Positions 1 through 56,900 of a stretch of DNA of 64,000 bases are shown one piece after another. Where the stretch lies: assembly GCA_037379345.1 (NCBI GenBank), contig CM074516.1:23560001-23624000 (forward strand), written 5' to 3'. Position 1 is the stretch's first letter; each line of letters begins with the position of its first letter. This DNA is from Perna viridis. Taxonomy: Eukaryota. Position numbers and translations under genes: made by a program. Below the pieces are notes generated by a model. The model did no database searches and was not told the origin of the DNA. It was given only the letters and a program-made list of their open reading frames with translations.

Positions 1-228
1 AGCGCGTAGAAACATTTCAACAAATAGTATAAATAGTACAAACGTTCAAGTGTGTACAGAAATTAATGATGACAATTCGCCGAATTCTGAAAAGGAAGCG
101 AGTGAGGTTGATACTACTGATATTCCTTCTGGCTAACGTTGGATAATAGCAGTGATGCGGTCCAAAGAAGCTCGCGTAGAGATCTGAATGTTGTCGCAAA
201 TACGTCATCTAATATGGCGGCGCCCATG
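1..228. mobile_element. Possible end of a DNA-transposon insertion interrupting the gag 5' region
   Basis: Non-coding sequence ending in aatatggcggcgcccatg, directly before gag-like coding sequence resumes (~229). The other end lies outside the window, so TIR/TSD cannot be checked. Confidence 0.25.
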
Positions 229-256
229 AAAAACAACATTGTGACTGGTAAACTCT

Positions 257-2222
257 ATGCAGACGATGCAACAAACTATGCTAGGTCTTCAGCAGACAGT
301 GATGAAATTAATTCATAATGATAAGAACTCTCAAATCAGTGGAGACCAGAACAATTTGTCCACGGCGTTGGCAGCTTTTAGGAATGGAAATTCCACTGAA
401 ACGACAAACAGTCAGCAGCCTTTCCCACATGGTGGGTATCGCTTTCCAAACTCTGAATTTGAAGTCCCAACCGAATGTATTCCCCACTTAGATGTGGTGC
501 CTGAAATCCTTAAAAAGCGTATTTGGGATGGCAAATACATTAATCTTGCAAGTTTGTTAATCCCCCGTATTGAACATGATAAAACTTGTGTACAGGAACA
601 GGGGTCAATCACACTCAATATGTCAGGTCATGAGGATACAAGATTACATAAAGTGCTTACAATTAGTGAGTTTATCACCGCCTTTGGCAAATTTAAAAGC
701 AATGACGGTCCTAGAACAACAAACCATTTAGAGGGGTGGCATAACAAATTGAAGAAAAAAGTCAACAACGCACATCCAAACATCTTCACCGTTATCCGTA
801 TGTTCAAAGATATTCAGGCTGCAAATGAGATCAAGCAAATCCAACACAACGCCGGCGGAACTATTCGACCAAAAACCAAGAACTACCGTACAATTGACAG
901 CAGATTAGTGCAGCTGAAAGAAAGACTCACACATGGTAACATCACAGTTATTCAATATGCTGACACAGCATCACATCTTCTCCATTTAGAGTGATATGTG
1001 ACATTGACTTTAGATACTATTTGTGACATTTAAGTTCTTGATATATGAAAGTCTAGTGCAGTATGTCTAATTGTATGTTTGTGCTACTTTATTTATTTCA
1101 ATGGTATGCAATTTTGTTTAAATTGTTGGATATGAATACTTTTGTTACCTTGCCTAATTTAATTAATCATAAATGTATGTGCTTTATCAGTGCTTATTTC
1201 AAGTTTAATGTTGTTGAATAAATTATATATATTTCCACAAAGTTTCTTTTTCTCTTTTGACTTGAATTAAATTGATCAGTGGACAACAGGAAGCAGATAC
1301 TTAATACAAAATTATGGAGTAAAAGCACATGAGACCACAATACAGAGTATATAGTTATTTTAACCGACATTTCCAAAAAAACAAAACAGTTATACCAAAC
1401 ATAGCCATTAAGAAAGACAAGAAAATACACATTGAATTGCACTTAGACCACAATACAGGGTGTATACTTATTTCAATGAACTTATTCCAAAAAACAAAAC
1501 AGTTATACTAAACATAACCATTAAAAAGACTAGAAAAAAATCACATTGAATTGCCAACAAACAGTAAAACAGACTATAGGTAATTATCTATTGTTCTCTA
1601 ATTAGTGTCATTACATCTGCATTCCCATTCTGCCCACAATATTTTTACCTGTAAATTTCAAAAGTGGGCAGAACGGGAACACACCTTTAAAAGGGTAATG
1701 TGCATCAAATTTCCACAAAGGCGCATATAATTAGACAGCCAGTATGAAGCCAACATAATTGATATTTTCAATGTGTATGGTCCAAAATTTTATGATTACC
1801 ATTGTCAGTTTTCCGCCCGCGCAGGGGCAGCTTTGAAAGATTTTAACATCAAAGTAGATTGGTCCATCAAGGACACATCACTATTGAGTATGGTCACAGG
1901 CAATGCAAGGGTTAACACATGCTCTTATTGTTCATCTTACATCTTTCTGTCCTCAGCTAGGGACACAAAATCCAACTAATTTCCTCCTAAATTAAAGGCA
2001 AATGTGAGTGTGAAGGATAGTGACCGTTATGGCCGGAAAAGGATAATGTTTAACGATCAAGAAATTTGTAACAATTTCAATGACAATAAATGTAACAGGC
2101 AACAGTGTTCATATTCACATTTATGTTCTGTGTGCTTCTCTAACAATCACGGTTCTTCTTCTTGTACCAAGAGAAAATCACAAAAACAAAACCATACAGA
2201 ATTTGCCACCACCAGCAAGTGA
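257..2222 (+). pseudogene. gag: Ngaro gag (split by MULE insertion; internal stops)
   Basis: IWDGKYINLASLL...LTISEFITAFGKFK up to 699 continues at 1694 as RVMCIKFPQRR*LDSQYEANII..YGPKFYDYHCQFSARA. Ends with CNNFN..C....C...H.CS.C....H....C before TGA at 2220-2222. Confidence 0.8.
700..1685 (+). mobile_element. 5'-deleted Mutator-like (MULE) DNA transposon fragment
   Basis: Transposase C-terminal motif RTTNHLEGWHNKL..HPNIF. Right end ...gtgggcagaacgggaacacacc with a subterminal fold-back (1624-1637 vs 1664-1677). Flanked by direct repeat tttaaaag at 692-699 and 1686-1693. Confidence 0.75.
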
Positions 2223-3864
2223 CTAGCTACATGTACTTCACATACCGAAGTTGATACCCTTGTTCATGTTAGTGTTTTGCAACAGGAACTGCTAAAACAA
2301 CCAGATAGAGAGTTTGGAACTACTTATGTAATGGCCTTGTTTATGGCTTTGACACCTTAATATCGGATGAAGATGTACCTAGTAAAGAGTGTAAAAATCT
2401 ACGTTCAGCAATTACACAACCAGAAATAGTAGATAAACTCATAGAAAGTGAAGTAAACAAAGGTTTTTTACAAGGTTCATTTGTTACTTTGCCTTTTGCC
2501 AAATACAGAGTAAGTCCTATTGGTGTGGCTAAAGGGCAATATTCAGGGAAACATAGACTTATAGTAGACTTATCTTCTCCTCATGAGGACGACACACATC
2601 AGAGTGTAAATGACATGATTGATAAGGAACAATGCTCTTTGTCTTATGTTCGTATAGATGATGCTATTAAAATAATACAAAACTTAGGTAGGAATACATC
2701 AATGTGTAAAACGGACATTTCTGATGCGTTTAAACTTATGCCGATTGTTCCTTCTCAGTGGCATTTGTTTTGTCTTAAATGGAGAGATAGTTATTATTAC
2801 TATACTAAACTTGCCTTTGGCTGTCGCTCATCACCACAATTTTTTGACATGCTTTCACAAGCAATTTGTTGGATAGCTGAGAACAACTATGATATTCAGT
2901 TTATTTTACATCTTCTTGATGATTTTATTACTTTTGAGCATCCTAAAAATGTAGTCAAAGAAACATGGACCTTTTGTATACAATATTTGGTAGACTTAAT
3001 GTTCTTATGGCTAAGCATAAGACAACTGGCCCAGATACTGTTATGGGATATTTAGGCATTATCTTGGATTCTAGTTTAATGCAGGCTAGGCTACCACGTG
3101 AGAAACTACTACGTATTACTGCCTTTTTAACAAAATTTTCGTCCGAGAAATCCTGCACAAAACGGGAACTCTTACAACTGCTTGGTCATCTTAATTTTGC
3201 GTCCCGTGTTGTAATTCCTGGCAGAGCTTTTGTGTCACATTTAATTAAATTGTCAACTACTGTTCGAGCTTTACATCATTAAGTTAAGATAAATAAAGAG
3301 TGCCGAGAAGACATTAGAATGTGGCGTTATTTTTTATGTAATTGGAATAGTGTCAGCATGTTTTACAATGCCGAAAGTATTCCATCTGATGAATTGTGTC
3401 TGTATACAGATGCTTCAGGAACTAAAGGTTTTGGAGGATATTACAATAGTTGTGGTTTTCTGAAGCATGGCCATCAATGTTTCTAGATGTATTAGCGGAG
3501 GACAGTACCTTCTCAATAGCTTTCAAGGAACTGTACCCCATAGTAGTGGCTGCCATCTTGTGGGAGCATTTGTGGCAAACACAAAGAATAGTGTTTATGT
3601 GTGATAATGAGGCTACAGTAGCTATCTTAAAGAAAGGCAGATCAAAATCACAACATATTATGCCCTTAATGAGACGACTCACTTTAGTTGCCGCTCAATA
3701 TAACTACTTTCATGTCTAAACATGTGCCAGGTAAATACAATTCAATAGCAGATGCTTTGTCTCGTTTGCAGATGTACAGATTCCGCCAACTTGCGCCAGA
3801 GGCTCAGAGCCTATCATGCACAGTGCCTCCACCTCAACATATGCTTTGGAACTCTACAATGTAG
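2223..3864 (+). pseudogene. pol: Ngaro pol: reverse transcriptase + RNase H (frameshifted)
   Basis: ORF pieces 2489-3055, 2965-3282 and 3450-3719 carry RLIVDLS, KTDISDAF, LAFGCRSSP, HLLDDF, YLGI.LDS, LLGHLNFAS, YTDASG, KELYPIV and CDNEATV; HVPG..N.IADALSR follows. Confidence 0.9.
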
Positions 3865-4846
3865 TGGATCAATTGTGGTATAAATCTATCTCAAGTAAAA
3901 CTAGACAAGTGTACCAAGCTGGCTTTAAGGCTTATGTGAATTTTTTGCTATTAACGGGGGTTGTAGCTTTTATAGTACCAGAGTATTCTAATGTAAAAGT
4001 TGATGAAGAAACCCTACTACTTTTCGTAGCTTATTGTACTAGTAAACTACTGATAAGTTATAGCACTATAAAGTCTTATTTATGTGGCATTAGGTTTAAG
4101 TGTTTAGAATTAAATATTGGTTATCCTCATGTTCTTGAACTCAGACGCCTTAAGACAATTATCAATGGTGTCAAACGGACTCAATCAATTACTTCTAAGC
4201 CTAGATATCCTATCACTTTTGATATTTTAGAAAAAAGTTTGTCTATGGCTGCGTCAAGAAAGTAGCTATGAAAATTTATTTTGCTTGAAGCCATGTGTAC
4301 AATAGCATTTTTGGGGTTTTTAAGATGTGGCGAGTTTACAGTAGATAGTGCTGAGAATTTTGATCCAGAATTTCATTTATGTGTTTCAGATTTGATGATT
4401 ATGACTGATGATGTGTACATCTTAAACTCAAAATTTCCAAAACAGATCCTTTTAGACAAGGTGTGACAATAAAATTGTTCGAGACAGGCAAGGATATATG
4501 TCCTCATAAAACATGTTGTATGTATATGAAGAAAAGGCTACAAAATAATCCATCTCTAGACACTCCATTGTTTGTAAATATATATGGAAATGCTATTTCA
4601 AGATCTTACTTTTTAAATATGTTGAAACATACCATGGACATTTTAGGCTATGATTCTACATGTTATAATGGTCATTCTTTCCGCATTGGGGCCGCATCAA
4701 CTGCAGGCAGGGTCTGTGTTGAGGACCATCTAATTAAGCTTTTGGGTCGATGGTCCTCAGATACTTATTGTAGATATATCAAAACTTCAGACTCGGCGAT
4801 CAAAAATGCACTAAAAGCTTTAGCTACTTATAATCCTCATGATTGA
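3816..4846 (+). pseudogene. Tyrosine recombinase of the Ngaro element (2 frameshifts)
   Basis: ORFs 3816-4265, 4281-4466 and 4463-4846 join into a YR: TIKSYLCGIR, FLGFLRCGEF, KTDPFRQG (across a frameshift), GHSFRIGAAS, LGRWSSDTYCRY. Confidence 0.9.
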
Positions 4847-5058: not shown

Positions 5059-8000
5059 TCATAGAAAATATTTGTTAAGTTTGCTTACAAAAGTTGCAAT
5101 ATAAGATAACAATTTTACATGACAAAAAGTTAACATTCCTTTCATCTTATAAACACTGGGATTCACATAATAATACCTTGGTATGTATGTTTGCCTAAGC
5201 TGAACAATAGATTCATTATCACAGATAAATAGATAGTGGTACTCATCTCCTATACCAATCCTACACAGAGGACATATCCTCTCATGTCGAGGGGTCTTAT
5301 TCCATCTACCCGTTTCGATTGGTAGTTTTAGATTACATGTTCTTAATTTCGTAATATATTTTCTTTTTGAGTCCGGCAGCCGTAAGAGGTATTCTCGATG
5401 CCAAAATCTGTTTTAAAATTTTCATAAAAATCCCCTTTAGATGAATTCACTATATTCGAAAACCAACTCTGAATAAACTGATTCCTAAAGCGGTTATACA
5501 AAACAGGCTTTAGAGTATTCCATTCAATGTGTAGTTGATTTGCAAATATGTATCCAAGGCCAGTATTGTCAAATAAGGATCTGATGTGGGCAATCCATCT
5601 AAAGTTCATGCCTTCGTTAATGTTTAAAGCTAGCATCAACTTGTAAAGAATGCTACTAAGTTTTGTCTCATTCTTTAAAAGTCTACACCAGAACGAGACC
5701 ATTCTCATATTTGCTCGAACATGTAATGGGTGACGTCCAAGTTCTCCATACACCATGAAGTCTGGGGTCGAAGGTCTGAGATTGAGTATCCTTTTACAAA
5801 ACTGTAGGTGCACTCTTTCAATTATCTCAAGATTCTCGTAACCCCAGACCTCAGTTCCATAGAGTAAAATAGGTTTAACCAAGGAGTCAAATAGCTTAAG
5901 TTGCACATCTACAGGTATACTATGGTTTCTAATTTTTTTGAATATAGAAAGCAAAGATTTTTGTGATTGCTCGACAAGTTTTTTTCTTGCATCGCTAAAA
6001 TTGCCGTTAAATTTAAAAACAATACCAAGGGATGTCAGCGAATCAACAATATCTAACTCTATACCATTTAGTTAAAATACAGGATTATTTCTGGATTTAC
6101 GTTTGCTAAAAATAATAACTTTAGTTTTTGATACATTTACCGAAAGCTTCCATTTAGTACAAAATTCTTGAAAAATATCAAGTGCTTTCTGCATTCCTTC
6201 TTCAGATTCAGAAAAAATAACTGTATCATCAGCATATAACAATACAAAAATTTTAATTAAATGGTGAAGTTTGTTTTCAATTTTCTCTTTAATGACTGTC
6301 AATGGTAGAACATTAAGATCTTCAAGTACTTTTCTAAGTCATTTAGAAATATTGAGAAAAGAAAAGGTGAAAGGTTTTCACCTTGTCTAACACCATTCAG
6401 ACACAGAAAAAAAATCAGAAGTCTGGTTGTTAAATGACACACAAGATTTAATATTATCTTACATGTTATAGATTATTCGGAAACACTTTCCCTTGATACC
6501 ATAATTTTGTAACTTTTTCCAAAGACCAACTCGCCATACAGTGTCGAAAGCTTTGCGAAAATCGACAAATGTGCAATATAATTTTTTACCATAAGTCAAA
6601 TATAATGAAATCAGGGCATGCATAATAAAAATATTATCTGTGGTTGAGTAACCCTTCCTGAAGCCGGATTGACATTTAGAAATAATATCAAACTCACTAG
6701 AAAGAAAGTTTAATCTACTGTTGATAATTAATGTAAATAATTTACCTAAGCAGCTAATTAGTGTAATAGCTCGGTAATTATCTGGATCATTTGGATCACC
6801 TTTATTCTTGTATATCGGACGAATAATTCCATTTAACCAGGTATCTGGCACAATACCAGAATCAAACACAATATTAAAAAGTTTACAAAAAATAGAGACG
6901 AGATGCGGCGAGGAACATTTAAAATATTCATTTACAAATTCGTCGATACCTGAAGCTTTACCATTCTTTAACCCTTTAATTGCTTCATTTACTTCATCTT
7001 CAGTTATCTCCCCATTAATAATTACATCATAAAGATCATTGTCGCATATGTTATCAAGGAAAGCGTCCGAATCATCTTCATGAACAACATCTTCACTGGT
7101 ATCATTTAATTTCTTAAAGTATTCATATAATTTATCAATATCAGTATTAGCATCGTTCTTATTTGAAAAGTTCATATTATTAAGTATTTTCCACATTTCT
7201 TTGGGATCAGATTCAGAGGTTTGTCTAAGTTTTGTTGCATTCTGCTCTTGAAAAAGTTCAAAACTTTTGTTCATAGCATTTCGAAACTCTTTTGCTTTTA
7301 GATTTAATTCATTTTTGACTTGATCTGATTTATCATGTTTATATTTATCTCTGAGTTTATTAAATTCTTTGCGTTTTTCAGCACAAGTTTTATTAAACCA
7401 TGGTTTTGACTTATTATGATCATTTAATCTCTTTTTAGGAGTGTGTGTCCCAAATGTATTTTTCGCATTATCAACAAAAATATTTTGAAGATCTAAAAAC
7501 AAATCATCTATAACACCTTTGGTAATGGTTTCTATACAAACGGAGTTGACCTTTTCATTTAATTCTTTAATGCAATCATTTTCATCTGAATTAAGATTAT
7601 TCACAAACTCTTGACTCTTCACCTGATTCCATTTAATAATTTTTTTTCCCTTCACTAACTTTAGCACACCATTATCATGCTTGTCATTTTTGGACAAGAT
7701 AGTAAAGTGTATTCTATTGTGTATGTTAGAGAACATGGGATTAAAATCACATATTTCAAACTCTATAATATATTGGATTAACAATGGGAACATAATTAGA
7801 TAATCAACAGTGCTAATGTTTTTGCTAGTTGTTTTACCACAAAGTTTATCAGCATGTAATCTACCATTAACTATAAATAAAGAACACCGTTTACAAAGAT
7901 CTAATAATTTGTGTCCATATGGATTAATTCTACCTTCATCCTTGTTAGATCTTTCAACAGGAATACCTATATTTTCTAAAATTTTGTGAGTATACATGTT

Positions 8001-8490
8001 TTCAGTTAAATCGTCATCTACAATATGGAGTATTTCTTCTAACAAATTTTCATCAGGTGTAACATAATCTGGAAGTCGGGCGGTTCTTGCATTAAAGTCG
8101 CCAACTAGTGACACATACTTCGATTTTTGTGAAAAATTAATGATGTCATTTTCTAGTTCAATAAAGGAATTTTCTACCCATTGAACAACATCTGATTCTG
8201 AATCAATAAACTTAATAAAGTTAGATAAACACTTTTTGTAAATAATAATAATACCCCCAGATTTACGTTTACACCCTCTCCGATTTTTACAATAAAAAAG
8301 ATAATCGTTTGGTAAATCTATAGTATCAAGTTCGTCTAGTTTTGTTTCAACAAAAATAAGTACATCATATTTTAATATGAGTTCTGAAAAGTCAGGATTT
8401 AACAATTTCGATTTTAATCCACATACATTAAGATATGTAACATTTAGTTTTTTATCGTAACAGTTTAATTCATTGGGATTTAAATGTCCA
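5059..8490 (-). pseudogene. LINE ORF2: AP endonuclease + reverse transcriptase (few stops/frameshifts)
   Basis: LNVCGL, ETKL, GDFNAR, VDYLI (APE); NYRAITL, QSGFR, FVDFRKAFD, LYADD (RT); C-terminal IETGRW..R.C.LC...DEYHYLF.C. Confidence 0.9.
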
Positions 8491-8542
8491 GTTTATTGTT
8501 TACAGATGTTTCGTTGGTATTGATTGTGTCCGAGTGACTGTC

Positions 8543-9718
8543 CTATTTACTCAAGTCGACGTGGGGTCCCTCAGGGGTTGCGCTTTCATATGGTTTGCCA
8601 TTTATCAAGATTTTGTCATATACCATTTTAGCGTTTACGCCTTGCCTTTTAAATTGTTTGAGTTCTGGTAATAACGCTCTGCGTCTATTTGCAATTTCTG
8701 TTGGGTACTGCTGATTTACGGTGTAGCCTCTTTTTCCTTTAAGGGCCCTTGGTACAGCTCTTAAAACTCGTTCATGATCACTATATTTTGTAAATCTAGC
8801 TATGATGTTCCTTGGTTTGTCATCGTTTCGCTGACCCAATTGGAATTGTATGCCTTCCACGTTTTCAATATGAAGTTGTCTTTCTAGAAACTCACGAATT
8901 ACCACCTCAGTATTTTCATCTTCATTGGTTTGTCTAATTCCACCAAATATCAGGTTATACTTAATAGAGTGACTTTGAAGTTTCAAAAAGTCTTCTCTCA
9001 AGTTATAGTTTTCAGCCTCAAGATATTGGTTTTGTCGTTCCAGCTCTTGAGTTCTGTCTTCTATTTCATGATGATGCTTTTCCTGTCTTGTAGTAATTTC
9101 ACCTTGATTTTTCTGAGCCTGCTTTATATTGTCAATCTCACCTCTCATGTTGATGATATTTTCTTCCAGTGCATCAAATCTCCTGGAGATTGAGTCTAGA
9201 ACATCAAGCTTCTGTAATTTTTCATGTAGGATAGATTCAATATGTTGCATCTTTTGTGAGATTATATGAATATCTTTAACAATATTTACAGATTGCATAT
9301 TATCTAAAGTTGGTGGTGCACATACAGAGTATGTTTTGTTTGGATTCAATGATGTCATTTGAGGGATCTGCATGTATTCTTTGTTCACAGTGTTTAGAGG
9401 AGGAGGTGGCACTGGCTGTTGAGTATAATTATACTGTGGTGGTTGTATAATGTTTTGATTTGGTACAGGTGTGCTGTGTTGAATATGTGGTTGGACTGGT
9501 GTAGATTGAAACACAAGTTGCTGTGGCTGGACAGGGGATCCTGTTATGTTGAAATTAGGAGCTTTATATAAGGTCTCATGAGCTTGGGCTATAACATTTG
9601 AGGTCTCATTTTGTTGTTGTTGTTGTATGGAGGCCGCCATATTTGACTTGAATGGTGGTGTCTCCCCTGAGTGGCTAAGATCGTTTTTCTTTCGCTTCTG
9701 GTTAGTTTTCGTATTCAT
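8543..9718 (-). CDS. LINE ORF1p (Q/P-rich N-terminus, coiled coil, L1-ORF1-like RRM/CTD)
   Basis: Open 391-aa ORF upstream of ORF2 with a heptad coiled coil and NLIFGGI, PRNIIARF and VNQQYP..I..RR..L motifs. Confidence 0.85.
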   Translation of the reverse strand: MNTKTNQKRKKNDLSHSGETPPFKSNMAASIQQQQQNETSNVIAQAHETLYKAPNFNITGSPVQPQQLVFQSTPVQPHIQHSTPVPNQNIIQPPQYNYTQQPVPPPPLNTVNKEYMQIPQMTSLNPNKTYSVCAPPTLDNMQSVNIVKDIHIISQKMQHIESILHEKLQKLDVLDSISRRFDALEENIINMRGEIDNIKQAQKNQGEITTRQEKHHHEIEDRTQELERQNQYLEAENYNLREDFLKLQSHSIKYNLIFGGIRQTNEDENTEVVIREFLERQLHIENVEGIQFQLGQRNDDKPRNIIARFTKYSDHERVLRAVPRALKGKRGYTVNQQYPTEIANRRRALLPELKQFKRQGVNAKMVYDKILINGKPYESATPEGPHVDLSK

Positions 9719-12642: not shown

Positions 12643-14808
12643 TTAATAAATTTCTAGAAGATATTCCTTCAAAGATTTAGGCAATGGCAACCGTGGAACT
12701 TTCTCAGCAATTTTTCTGTCGATGGATTTATAAATCTGTAGCCTTGCAATCTGCTTCAGACTCCGCGGATTTTCAGACAAGTTGATAACAATGCGACTAT
12801 TTTCGCAACCCAAATTTCTCGCAGGGTTTAATGTTACCTTTGCAGCGTTTAGATAATTATACAGAGCGTCGTGAGACATAGTATTGTAAAATAACATGAA
12901 AAATTCTACAGCATAGTCCATAAACATGTTTCTATTAGAAACACATGAATTCAGACACTGAGATCCCAATCTTTTTAGATAAATAGAGCTCTGTGAATGA
13001 CAAACGACGAAATTAGAAGGATTGGGTTGTATGTCTGGATCAGCACCCAATTGAAACAAAACTTTTAACCATTTGTGGATTTCCACTAGCTGCTGATTTT
13101 TCCAGGGAAACTTTTCAACTAAAATCATAAAAAAATCCAATGCACTTCTGTTTTGACATCTTGGGAAGCCCATACTATCCTCCCACTTAACAACATCTAT
13201 CTGGTTAGGGTTTTGACCATTTTTCACAGAGACTGTCAATAATCTACAGACTAACGAGGAAAACTCAGATATAATTCGCCTATCCACCATACAGTTAAGA
13301 CCACTGGCAAACTCGGAAACAATGTTAAAATATCCTGGTGCGTTTTCTTGAAGTTTTGCCCCATGGCTTAAAAGTAACTCTACTATTTGAACTACAGAGT
13401 CAGATTGCACAAACAAGTTTGTAGGGTCTTCATTTAGTAAGCACTGGAAATAGACATAAAGTGGAGAAGCACCATTAGGACTAGGCCTGTTTATATTAGA
13501 CCCATAACGTACCAAAACCTCTATAGCCTGATGAAGGTGTCCATGATGTTTATTATAGTTATGGAATGAAGTTCCAAGAAGATTATGAAAGCGTGGCTCA
13601 TGTAACACTGCATTCTCTCCCATGCTTGATTTCAATGAGATGTACATAAGTTTACCAAGAGAATCTATTCCGTAACTGTTGAGTATCCCTGCATCTGCAT
13701 TGAACTGGAGTAATAGCTCTAGAGTTTGAATAACTTGGTCCTGATAGTCATTATGTAATGATTTATAGTTTTCTTCATCAACCACATGTGGTGGAAATTT
13801 AACACTAGGAATATTAGAAACATGTGAAACTAGGAAGTGTAGAGGTGTCTCTCCATTTTTGTCCCTGCAGTTAATCATTTGTTCAACACCAGTTTTTAGC
13901 AGCAGTTCTGAAGTGTCAAATATTGTGAACAAACCACTGAACTCACCACCAAAAAGTTGATGTAGTGCAGTGTTGCCATTACTTGCAATGATTTTAACAT
14001 CAGCCCCATTGTTAATTAATACTGTTGTACATGATATTCCCCATTTTACAGACTTCAATAGAGGGGTAAGCCCATTTGAATCCTTGGAATTAACAATAGA
14101 AGCATTCTGAGATAGTATCATTTGAATACAATCTTTTGCCCCACAGTCACATGAATAGTGAAGAAGGTCAACTAAATCTACTGTGTAACCTCTCTGATTC
14201 ATGTGGGTAAGAAGTAAGGAAAGGCAGCCAGCATTGTTACTATGACAAGCCCAATGGGTTGGCAAATGTTTATTTAAACTGCAACTATAAATAGGATTTG
14301 CAGTTCTCCCTAACCAGTTTGTCCTTCTACCTAATGGTACATGCCACTGAGGATAGCAAATACCAGCTTGACTTCTTACATCCATACCATTCTTAAGTAA
14401 AATTTCCAATATCTCAACATGGCCCAGATGTGCAGCAAGGTGGACAGGGGAACAACAGTCATTCTCCAGCTTGTCATGCGGCCATTTTAAAAACACTTTC
14501 ACAAGAGATTTTGCCCCCTTTGCAATTGCTAATTGTAAAAGGTTATAGGAAGTATTGTGATCACGACAGGATAGTATATTCTCATCTAGTGATAAGGATA
14601 AAGCAAGTGAGCAGCAATTCTTTTCTAACTCATCAATATTGTCAATCTTTCGAAAATATGTAAAAAGTTTCTGTATTGTTGTTTCTGTATCTTTTGATGG
14701 CTGTAGCAATGGTTTTAATCCAAAAACTATCTTAAGTGGCCAATAATTCAACAGATACTGGTTCAGAACATCCAGGCAGTCATATGCATATTGCAGTAGG
14801 TGAGTCAT
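12643..14808 (-). CDS. Ankyrin repeat and SOCS box-containing protein (ASB family), single coding exon
   Basis: Intact 721-aa ORF with ankyrin motifs (SPVHLAAHLGH, TPLLKSV, NTALHQL, ETPLHFL, SPLYVY) and a C-terminal SOCS box PRSLKQIARLQI...LPLPKSLKEYL. A splice acceptor (ttcttgttttttag) sits just upstream at 14851, with a candidate 5'UTR donor at 17266. Confidence 0.92.
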   Translation of the reverse strand: MTHLLQYAYDCLDVLNQYLLNYWPLKIVFGLKPLLQPSKDTETTIQKLFTYFRKIDNIDELEKNCCSLALSLSLDENILSCRDHNTSYNLLQLAIAKGAKSLVKVFLKWPHDKLENDCCSPVHLAAHLGHVEILEILLKNGMDVRSQAGICYPQWHVPLGRRTNWLGRTANPIYSCSLNKHLPTHWACHSNNAGCLSLLLTHMNQRGYTVDLVDLLHYSCDCGAKDCIQMILSQNASIVNSKDSNGLTPLLKSVKWGISCTTVLINNGADVKIIASNGNTALHQLFGGEFSGLFTIFDTSELLLKTGVEQMINCRDKNGETPLHFLVSHVSNIPSVKFPPHVVDEENYKSLHNDYQDQVIQTLELLLQFNADAGILNSYGIDSLGKLMYISLKSSMGENAVLHEPRFHNLLGTSFHNYNKHHGHLHQAIEVLVRYGSNINRPSPNGASPLYVYFQCLLNEDPTNLFVQSDSVVQIVELLLSHGAKLQENAPGYFNIVSEFASGLNCMVDRRIISEFSSLVCRLLTVSVKNGQNPNQIDVVKWEDSMGFPRCQNRSALDFFMILVEKFPWKNQQLVEIHKWLKVLFQLGADPDIQPNPSNFVVCHSQSSIYLKRLGSQCLNSCVSNRNMFMDYAVEFFMLFYNTMSHDALYNYLNAAKVTLNPARNLGCENSRIVINLSENPRSLKQIARLQIYKSIDRKIAEKVPRLPLPKSLKEYLLEIY

Positions 14809-15200
14809 GAGTTTCGTCTGTCAGTTCCATTCAATGGAAACCATCAGAATCTAAAAAACAAGAAAGTTTAATATAAATTAGTATCTTATACTATTCACAT
14901 CTAATGCATTGTGTTTATTACATTTTAGAGCTTGTACATCTACCGGTACATGTATATTACATGTTCAAGCTGCTATGAAAAAAATACATTGTACATACAT
15001 GTACTTGAAAAACTTTCATTAGTAGTGCAATGATGACATAAACTAATTTACATTAGTCAAGTCCATCTAGCGAGAAATTAACCCAAGGTTCATCTAATTG
15101 CAACAGAGGATGTAACAATATTTGTAGTCAGGAAATGTTCAAGGAGTTTTATAGGTATAAATTAAAGATTAGAAATAGATTTTCTCTCTTTAACAACCCC

Positions 15201-53990: not shown

Positions 53991-56900
53991 ACAGCCTCCA
54001 CTGCTTACAATACCCAGATTGTCGGATACGAAATGGCTAGAATAGAACAAAAATTTGGACTGATGCTTAAGAAAATACAAGAAAAGATAATGTTATTGCT
54101 TAAACAACTAACTGGCATTGGGTTTCGGTTTTCCTCTCACATAACTATATTTGGGTTAGAATTTTCAGTGTGGGAGGTCGAATTAGTCTATTCCGTTAAC
54201 GCTCTTGGTCAATGCAATAAGTTCAAAAAGGTTTACTCACTTATGCAAGGTGAAAATGCGATCAGAATGAGCCTACACAATGCATTTCCAATACGACTTT
54301 ATCAATTCCTGTACATCAATACGAATACATTTATGAGCCTTGCGGTCGGAACTGGTGATAAATTTGTTTTACATTGTCAGGCACGGGCAAATTTTCTTGG
54401 ACTGGCTACAGCAACAGCAGATATGTTAATCAACAATATAGGACTTTATTTATCAGTGGAAGGAAATATTTGGAATGTCTTTCTCGCAAAAATAGAAGCT
54501 TCTGCAGAGATTAGAGAACAATGGTAAAAATTAGTGTTCAAACTTCGAGGACGACTGTTGGCAGCATCCGAGAATAGTAAAATAGAACAACATTCAGATT
54601 TCAACGGTAGTTACCTAGATGGATTGCGTTTATTGCTGCGGAAAATCGGGACAAGCGCTAATGAGAGATTGACTGTCGCACAAGATGGACTATCAGCAGC
54701 ACAACATGTTCTAACAAAAGCACAGGATAAGCTAACTGATGCACAGGAATATTTAAGAGGATGTAACTCTAAGTTTGACCGCGCAATTGAAAATCTAGAG
54801 CAAGCGAAAGATAAACTCGAGGAGGCCAAGGGTCCTTTTGAGCATGCTTTAGACAAATTACGGAAAGCACAGAAAGACGTTGATAAATTGTGTCGATTAA
54901 GAAATTGCTCACCGAAATGTATTCCTGGCATAAGGTGTCGAAAGTGTAAATCGGGATGGTTTGGATTTTTTCCTTGTTGTCGTTTCAAAAGATGCATGTT
55001 CAAAATACCAGATATATTATGTTTGGCCGCAAATGTTCTGTGTCGTGTTATACGAGCCATTACCTATGCAGCTCTTGAAGCAGTCAAAATATTTGTTCGT
55101 ATTCCCATGCTTATATTTGATGCTGCCAAAGTAACTCTGACATTAGCACAGACAGTTGTAGAAGCAGCAAGGGTAATTCTAAAAGTCGCCGAAGGATTAA
55201 TTGAAGTTGCGAAAACTGGACTAGAGGTTATAAAGATTGGATTTGAAATCGCAAAAGGTGCAATTGAACTTGTCAAGAAAACCTTAGAAATAGCGCTTTA
55301 CGTATTTGGTTTGATCCTAAAATATGGTTTACAAAGTCTTATTGATGTTAGAAATTGTGGATTTGAAGTTGAAATTTCTGTTCATGATAAAGCAATGATA
55401 GAAGTATTTTGTGATGTACAAGCTTTCAGTCTAGGATGGACAACAATACGGTTCTGGTTTGATTTTCGCCATCCATTAACGAGTATGTGGAACATTGCAA
55501 AATCAACCGTGAAAAGTCTTTTGAATGCAGTAAAGAATATATTTGGAAAGCGCAAAAGACGGGATATTTCATTTATTGCTTTGCACCAGTTGCACAATAT
55601 CTTTGGTGTTTATAAAAGAGACATTGACGCTGTTTCTACTAATTCTTCTATGTACTTGGATGATTCAGTATTTACGAAAACAGATCAAACAAACGGTGAT
55701 GATCCAGAAACTGTCGAATACGAAAACCGTGTATTGTTGTTTCGTCAAAATTGTGAAATGTTTCAAAATGTACATTCCTTCTTAATGACGTCTATTCAAG
55801 TTCTACTCGATATGACAAACGGTACAGTTGAGATGTTAAATCATCTACACCAAAACAATGAAAATGAAAATACAACGGCAAATTTCAATGTGAGTAATAT
55901 GACCCTTGAAAATGCTGGGGTTAGCTTGGAATATGCCTTTAATGAGTTCAACATTTCTGAAGAGGAACTCAATTCAATTCTTGAAGGAGTCAAAGATACA
56001 TTCACTAGTGATCCCATGTACATTGAAATTGAAACTGTTGAAAAAGAAGCCAGTGAAGCTTCTAACAGGAGTTTAAATCAGGCTGAACACCTGCCTCTTA
56101 TAGTACATTGGTTCAATGCAATGGAAAATGAAACTTCAGTTTATTTTAATCGATCACAATGTTTTGCGTTTTCTGATTGTATACTTTACTCGTTTTTTGT
56201 CATGAATGATTTGTTGTCTGACGACTCACTAGATAATTCTGAGTCCAACAGGAATCTCACAAAACCATTGAGGACAGATATCTTCAGCTAAACCTGAACT
56301 CATCTTACACTGTAACAGAAATTCACCAGACATGACATGTCATGGCATTATAGAGGATCTCAGTAATTTTGGAAATAAAACAATGTTTTGTTCAACTGCA
56401 CCTACCTTCACAACACTACTGCAAATGTCACTGCTTTTGCTGGTTCTGATTTGTTGTTGGTTTGTAACGTGACAGGTGACCCTCCTCCTGGTATAATATG
56501 GTTTTGCAATGATACGAAAATGAAAAATGAAACGGACAGGGAGCTTTTCTTGTCTAAAAAAAAAGAATCAACGGGGCTTATAAATGTGCAGCTGAGAACT
56601 TAGTAGCAAGGCTAACCTCTTCTGTCACCACTGTTGATATCATAGGTAATTGAGTACGAAGTCAGTAACAGAATATAACCAGAGTTAACGTAATATTGAA
56701 AGACTTAAAACACAGTAAACAGCGAAACATCGATTAAACACAAAGGATTTTAAAACACGCAAGGGCAATTAGGTCGGTCAGATTCTCAGATTGGCCCTAA
56801 TTTTAGTTTCGACCGACCTTTAAAGTATTGCAGTGTAGTCTTACACATATTCAAATGTTGAAATATGACTGCATTGTCTTTGAAAGAGTAATCAAGGGAA

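Follow-up and report, generated by a model that had tools for sequence, protein, structure and literature searches.

Synthesis of Gag-Pol by stop-codon readthrough is already well known in LTR elements and elsewhere. In fission yeast, the gag-pol junctions of Tj1, Tosmo1-3 and Tcry1 have been read as sites of programmed readthrough, and the stop is described as essential for Tj1 transposition in the accessible part of that report (10.1101/2022.12.06.519325). Readthrough at UGA-CUAG has been described for OPRL1, OPRK1, AQP4, MAPK10 and alphaviruses in the available sections of PMC4132726, where CUA(G), CAA-UU and CARYYA appear as tested contexts and CGG is listed alongside for animal viruses; this agrees with the sequence-only reading of the present locus, which had called UGA-CUAG a leaky context in animals and alphaviruses.

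Little has been written on how tyrosine-recombinase (YR) retrotransposons express their enzymes. The layout of Ngaro elements, including the missing methyltransferase, is given in the portions consulted of PMC3266345 and PMC9210276. The sequence-only reading had held that DIRS and Ngaro ORFs usually overlap, which is contested between the same portions of these sources: all Xenopus Ngaro elements overlap according to PMC9210276, whereas PMC3266345 reports that there is usually no overlap. No description of gag-pol readthrough in Ngaro or DIRS elements was found in the literature searched, to which neither the founding Goodwin and Poulter papers and reviews nor Repbase belonged. It is not mentioned in the accessible parts of PMC3783388, PMC6681497, PMC3266345, PMC9210276, PMC8547959, PMC7192593, PMC12440569 and 10.1101/2021.04.08.439009, nor are DIRS or Ngaro mentioned in the part available of a large recoding review.

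A decayed Ngaro-type element and its gag/pol junction

Bases 1-4846 of the window (the whole 64,000-nucleotide stretch of DNA that was analyzed) carry on the + strand a decayed retroelement, which is a Ngaro-type tyrosine-recombinase retrotransposon. The Ngaro ORF order of gag, RT/RNase H and YR was found by tblastn with the proteins of an intact relative, L001, whose Gag aligns at 257-697 and 1686-2192 (257-2192 overall), its Pol at 2318-3855 and its tyrosine recombinase at 3735-4825. The Pol of L001 (535 aa) has Pfam matches to RVT_1 and RVT_3 only, without a methyltransferase, and its third ORF matches Phage_integrase; in the window, pol aligns as far as L001 residue 534, so that a methyltransferase is absent after RNase H here as well. 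The closest protein to the window RT was P0062, a predicted protein of Mytilus galloprovincialis (79% over 208 columns). In a tree with DIRS1-like rows as the outgroup, the window RT fell within a 100/100 clade together with fish relatives and the Danio rerio TPA polyprotein P0136, which we take to be DrNgaro1.

All parts of the element lie on the + strand. The 5′ part of gag (248-700) was recognized by tblastn matches to the Gag proteins of L001, L010 and L008 and, at its N-terminus, by likeness to P0062 as judged by eye. A foreign insertion of about 1 kb (701-1685), seen as a gap between the Gag matches and by its repeats, splits the gene; within it are an ORF remnant (701-994), an inverted repeat (1611-1690) and, at 1332-1554, a duplication of 113 nt. 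The remnant, which had no Pfam match, may be MULE transposase-like. The 3′ part of gag (1686-2219) encodes Cys/His knuckles and has frame breaks near 1932 and 1982, while pol (2318-3855), comprising RT and RNase H, is broken near 2950, 3280 (a stop), 3455 and 3700. The tyrosine recombinase ORF (3735-4846), with HSFR and GRW motifs, is in pieces and overlaps the end of pol. Neither a second copy of the element nor split direct repeats of the form A1 ... B1 A2 B2 were found within the window; the 5′ end of the element is probably upstream of base 1, and its 3′ neighbor is a LINE at 5059. Direct repeats of 1206 nt and 100 nt in this arrangement were present in the relative L008, and L001 showed none.

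Several other features of the window were recorded. The LINE directly after the Ngaro element (5059-9718, - strand) has an endonuclease and an RT. Uninterrupted ORFs were found at 12646-14820 (- strand, 725 aa, ankyrin and SOCS box), at 38061-41444 (+ strand, 1128 aa, C-terminal Ig domain) and at 54528-56288 (+ strand, 587 aa, no Pfam match).

At the junction, a TGA at 2220-2222 ends an ORF (1980-2222) whose product holds the Cys/His knuckle end of Gag, and together with the CTAG that follows it forms a candidate readthrough site (2220-2226). Beyond the stop the same frame reads LATCTSHTEVDTLVHVSVLQQELLKQPDREF, an in-frame linker that leads into a decayed Pol N-terminal motif, TP..L..EL..HPD. 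This stretch (2223-2316) contains no in-frame ATG; the frame breaks near 2316, RT is carried on in an ORF at 2309-3055, and the first ATG past the break, at 2615, already lies within the RVT_1 match. Rereading of the letters and the frame thus confirmed three points of the sequence-only reading, namely the gag stop with CTAG next to it, the in-frame continuation into pol, and the lack of a pol-frame ATG before about 2615. Of the 2592 TGA sites that the window has on its two strands, 2 are part of the heptamer TGACTAG.

The window's own copy is unable to make a fusion protein because both its gag and its pol are broken. For active members of the family, the same reading had proposed that Pol is made as a Gag-Pol readthrough fusion, and the in-frame TGA-C and start-less pol support this as the best explanation: the locus joins gag to pol in a decayed Ngaro-type retrotransposon, and active members probably make Gag-Pol by UGA readthrough. 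A single RNA would be translated from the gag start, with the majority of ribosomes halting at the UGA and releasing Gag, and a small fraction inserting an amino acid there to give a Gag-RT-RNase H fusion. The weak 3′ context (CUAG in the window, CUAU or CAAUU in close relatives) may aid decoding, and readthrough of this kind would hold Pol scarce relative to Gag. That readthrough happens, how often and to what end are inferred by analogy with MuLV and Tj1/Tosmo.

Stop context in the family and in Ngaro relatives

Contigs and reads from samples of organism A and organism B, plus a raw RNA run, were aligned over 1900-2750. In each of two samples of organism A, the junction is spanned by one contig (1900-2392 at depth 54; 1900-2664 at depth 313); these contigs appear to be collapsed multi-copy sequence, and the depths are not copy numbers. 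They differ from the window by 8 and 12 substitutions, none of them at 2220-2226, and TGACTAG is kept in both. The indels of both contigs fall at the three places where the frames of the window copy break, in line with the earlier view that the frameshift near 2315 reflects decay. Since the spanning contigs keep TGACTAG and differ at the frame breaks, the stop and its context belong to a less decayed form of the family. None of 11 contig substitutions in the 5′ region of pol (G2317 not among them) makes a pol-frame ATG or stop. The organism B contigs gave no cover at the junction, and a contig in X4 that was 85% alike and aligned up to 2227, with letters below the listing threshold, was left out of the count. 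With 8 reads, the raw RNA run was too shallow to inform on strand, level or splicing. Separately, contigs in three runs skip 565 bases (window 2072-2638, including the junction); they represent an internally deleted relative existing as DNA, and the ends of the deletion are not intron-like.

Beyond the family, we classed 37 junctions in addition to the window's, from metagenome contigs and eukaryote-type contigs in prokaryote genome bins. Loci dropped before this count of 38 were L003-L005 (weak matches), L007 (running off the contig end, with contig and sequence the same as L006), L012, L013, L020, L087 and L089 (decayed, partial or not classed), duplicate fetches, and L066-L085 (DIRS1-like or other). 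Genome samples gave matches in 3/301, 1/401 and 2/45 genomes, and two scans of viral contigs returned no relative. Two of the prokaryote bins, G001 and G002, had 72 and 7 retrotransposon profile matches, respectively; the contigs concerned are most likely residual host DNA.

Gag and pol are in frame across one stop in 8 of the 38 junctions (including the window), in a -1 overlap in 10, in a long +1 overlap in 19 and in a single ORF in 1. All eight in-frame junctions have TGA-C. The bases after TGA are CTAG in the window, CAATTC in L001 and L002, CTATTC in L010, CAACCG in L052, CGGTCA in L028, CGTCTA in L055 and CCTTTA in L056, so that TGA-C is what all of them share, with TA, AA, GG, GT or CT next, and CTAG is confined to the window family. 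The expectation that the CTAG context is conserved therefore holds within the family (2/2 contigs) and fails across relatives, where only TGA-C is common (8/8). Among control stops of the same loci, TGA-C was found at 0/25 overlap-type gag stops, 1/28 pol stops and 5/23 YR stops (6/76 in total). The raw Fisher value for in-frame against control stops, 7e-8, overstates the case because the rows are related; the in-frame label needs four changes on the tree, and counting each lineage once (4/4 vs 6/76) gives p ~1e-4. The layout and the stop context of the family and its relatives are direct observations, as is the missing pol ATG of the near-clade elements described below.

These comparisons bear on whether the stop could be a nonsense mutation in a former single Gag-Pol ORF, its context having arisen by chance. 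Heavy decay of the window copy and the single ORFs of fish relatives would fit such an origin. However, the less decayed family contigs retain the stop, L001 and L010, which are otherwise intact, share the position of the TGA-C with the window, and TGA-C is infrequent among the control stops; this explanation is largely refuted and we give it almost no weight.

Removal of the stop by splicing, or splicing that joins an upstream start codon to pol, is also very improbable. Formally, the TAG at 2224-2226 could serve as an acceptor, and a same-phase TAG lies 6 bases further on in L001, but the sequence before these AGs is 44% pyrimidines with no pyrimidine-rich tract, and L002 and L010 were without an AG at the matching place and phase in a crude scan. 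Thus of two findings that could have spoken against readthrough, a pol ATG of its own and a splice acceptor, the family contigs gained no ATG and the scan found no conserved acceptor at the junction. Counting against readthrough, some classes of which have a stimulatory 3′ RNA structure, local and pseudoknot-free folding of 7 elements gave nothing stable downstream of the stop (11 folds, z -1.6 to +1.2).

The ten -1 overlap elements (L006, L008, L009 and L015; L053, L054, L057, L058, L061 and L088), one of them with a broken gag, have an A_AAA_AAC slippery site, read by eye in L006 and L088, and they fall in two separate Ngaro clades. Four of the -1 elements, with A_AAA_AAC in the gag frame, belong to the 100/100 clade of the window, as do the fish single-ORF Gag-Pol proteins. 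In the 19 +1 elements (L011, L024, L031, L034, L037, L040, L042, L044, L046-L051, L059, L060, L064, L065 and L086), pol overlaps gag by 65-557 bases in the 18 measured, with no conserved start. Because these 19 of 38 junctions are unexplained by readthrough or -1 slippage, Ngaro elements may have a way of making Pol other than as a fusion, which is a point against the readthrough model. The one single-ORF locus, L045, groups as sister with a +1 element and could be a mutated copy.

Two observations concern the recombinase frames. In ten DIRS1-like elements (L067, L069-L075, L078 and L084), a recombinase frame of ~990 codons starts right after a TAG in 10/10, and this TAG is the gag stop wherever the contig includes gag; it may be a second readthrough site or reflect constraint from the overlapping RT frame. 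In the YR ORFs of 23 loci, the first Met lies between codons 4 and 176, and a quick look at these ORFs, including window 3735-3900, found no clear conserved acceptor.

Pol starts and fusion proteins

A third alternative is that Pol is made separately, by reinitiation past the gag stop, from a non-AUG start or from a shorter RNA with an internal promoter, the in-frame layout being a relic of a fused ancestor. In its favor, all four distant-clade in-frame elements have a Met 6-13 codons past the stop, and Tca2 has a minor junction promoter according to the part of PMC2194720 consulted. However, these distant-clade Met codons do not share one position but fall at three, and none of the four near-clade in-frame elements read as DNA (of which L001 and L002 are close kin) has a pol-frame ATG ahead of the conserved motif: the first Met is at codon 131 in L001, codon 40 in L002, codon 73 in L010 and position 2615 in the window, always past TP..HPD. 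Among 120 Pol homologues, the called start lies before the TP motif in 57, which would suit separate synthesis, and within it in 31 or after it in 32 (together 63/120), which would not. This scatter indicates that there is no conserved Pol start. The called start coincides with codon 2 of the L001 frame in 19/120, again a point for separate synthesis, and this shared position could be ATG or TTG. Separate synthesis also leaves the TGA-C of all eight in-frame junctions unaccounted for, and we consider it unlikely.

Fused proteins in the databases point toward Gag-Pol. A search for longer proteins returned 55. In the 20 fish proteins examined, the Gag knuckle runs unbroken into the Pol motif, with a linker Trp in 0/20; the Danio protein reads KSK-QYLSTP where L001 has *-QFLATSP. 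Two of the 20 come from contigs of 4-6 kb, making gene-model splicing an unlikely source of the fish fusions, and since Gag is joined to Pol without a break, the window clade naturally produces full Gag-Pol fusions. A sense codon at the junction, which the sequence-only reading had counted against readthrough, is present in these fish relatives, yet it argues for a fusion protein and not against one.

By comparison, of 10 long proteins from ENA, 2 lack the Gag knuckle and 8 carry a single Trp in the variable linker; the next residue is Leu in 7 of these and Gln in 1. Three further Trp-Leu cases bring the database fusions with one linker Trp to 11 in all (Leu in 10, Gln in 1). The eight that were placed in the tree form one subclade. 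P0130 has an additional Trp at the usual end of Pol, and Asn is the last residue, at the corresponding place, in 4 of 5 Gag-only proteins. These patterns, which are indirect evidence from protein sequences, fit a gene caller having rendered TGA as Trp, in which case they would mark more TGA-CTN/CAR junctions; a true TGG is an alternative.

The in-frame stop, the -1 slippery site and the single ORF can each give a fusion, as all three occur in one clade. Judging from these layouts, animal Ngaro elements probably make Pol as a Gag-Pol fusion while switching repeatedly, within one clade, among UGA readthrough (CUA, CAA, CGG), -1 frameshifting at A_AAA_AAC and a single ORF. The switch between readthrough and frameshifting is directly testable in such a clade, which, if the proposal is true, would provide a natural series on how recoding modes replace each other and would bear on how a protease-less element tolerates a fully fused Gag-Pol. 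A conserved leaky stop, if true, would also account for the start-less pol, mean that gene models spliced over the junction need correcting, and add molluscan-type hosts to those in which UGA-CUAG is read through.

Comparison with known recoding systems

Among the nearest described systems, Ngaro (order DIRS) as represented by Danio P0136 is like the window element in its gag - RT/RNase H - YR order, in lacking a methyltransferase and in its 100/100 RT clade; the fish Ngaro proteins, however, have a continuous Gag-Pol ORF, whereas the window has a TGA-C stop at the junction. In Candida albicans Tca2, gag-UGA-pol is in frame as in the window, and the consulted part of PMC2194720 reports that the Tca2 junction alone gave no readthrough in yeast reporters, which is a caution for the window element. 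The gammaretrovirus MuLV makes Gag-Pol by readthrough of an in-frame stop (PMC5009743, in the part available), as proposed for the window element, but with UAG and a 3′ pseudoknot in place of UGA and no 3′ structure found. The window family has the same 7-letter context as OPRL1/AQP4-type readthrough, and L001 and L002 have CAATT, also represented in the accessible sections of PMC4132726; UGA-CUAG readthrough was measured there in mammalian cells, whereas the window junction is known from its sequence alone. The layout is also matched by the fission-yeast Ty3/Gypsy elements Tj1, Tosmo1-3 and Tcry1, in which an in-frame gag-TGA-CT(A/G)-pol is described in the available part of 10.1101/2022.12.06.519325. 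Those are LTR elements with a protease and a DDE integrase, whereas the window holds a YR element. Beyond these systems, the locus brings in a clade from animals, CUAG as the textbook context, and a single tree on which three layouts can each give a fusion.
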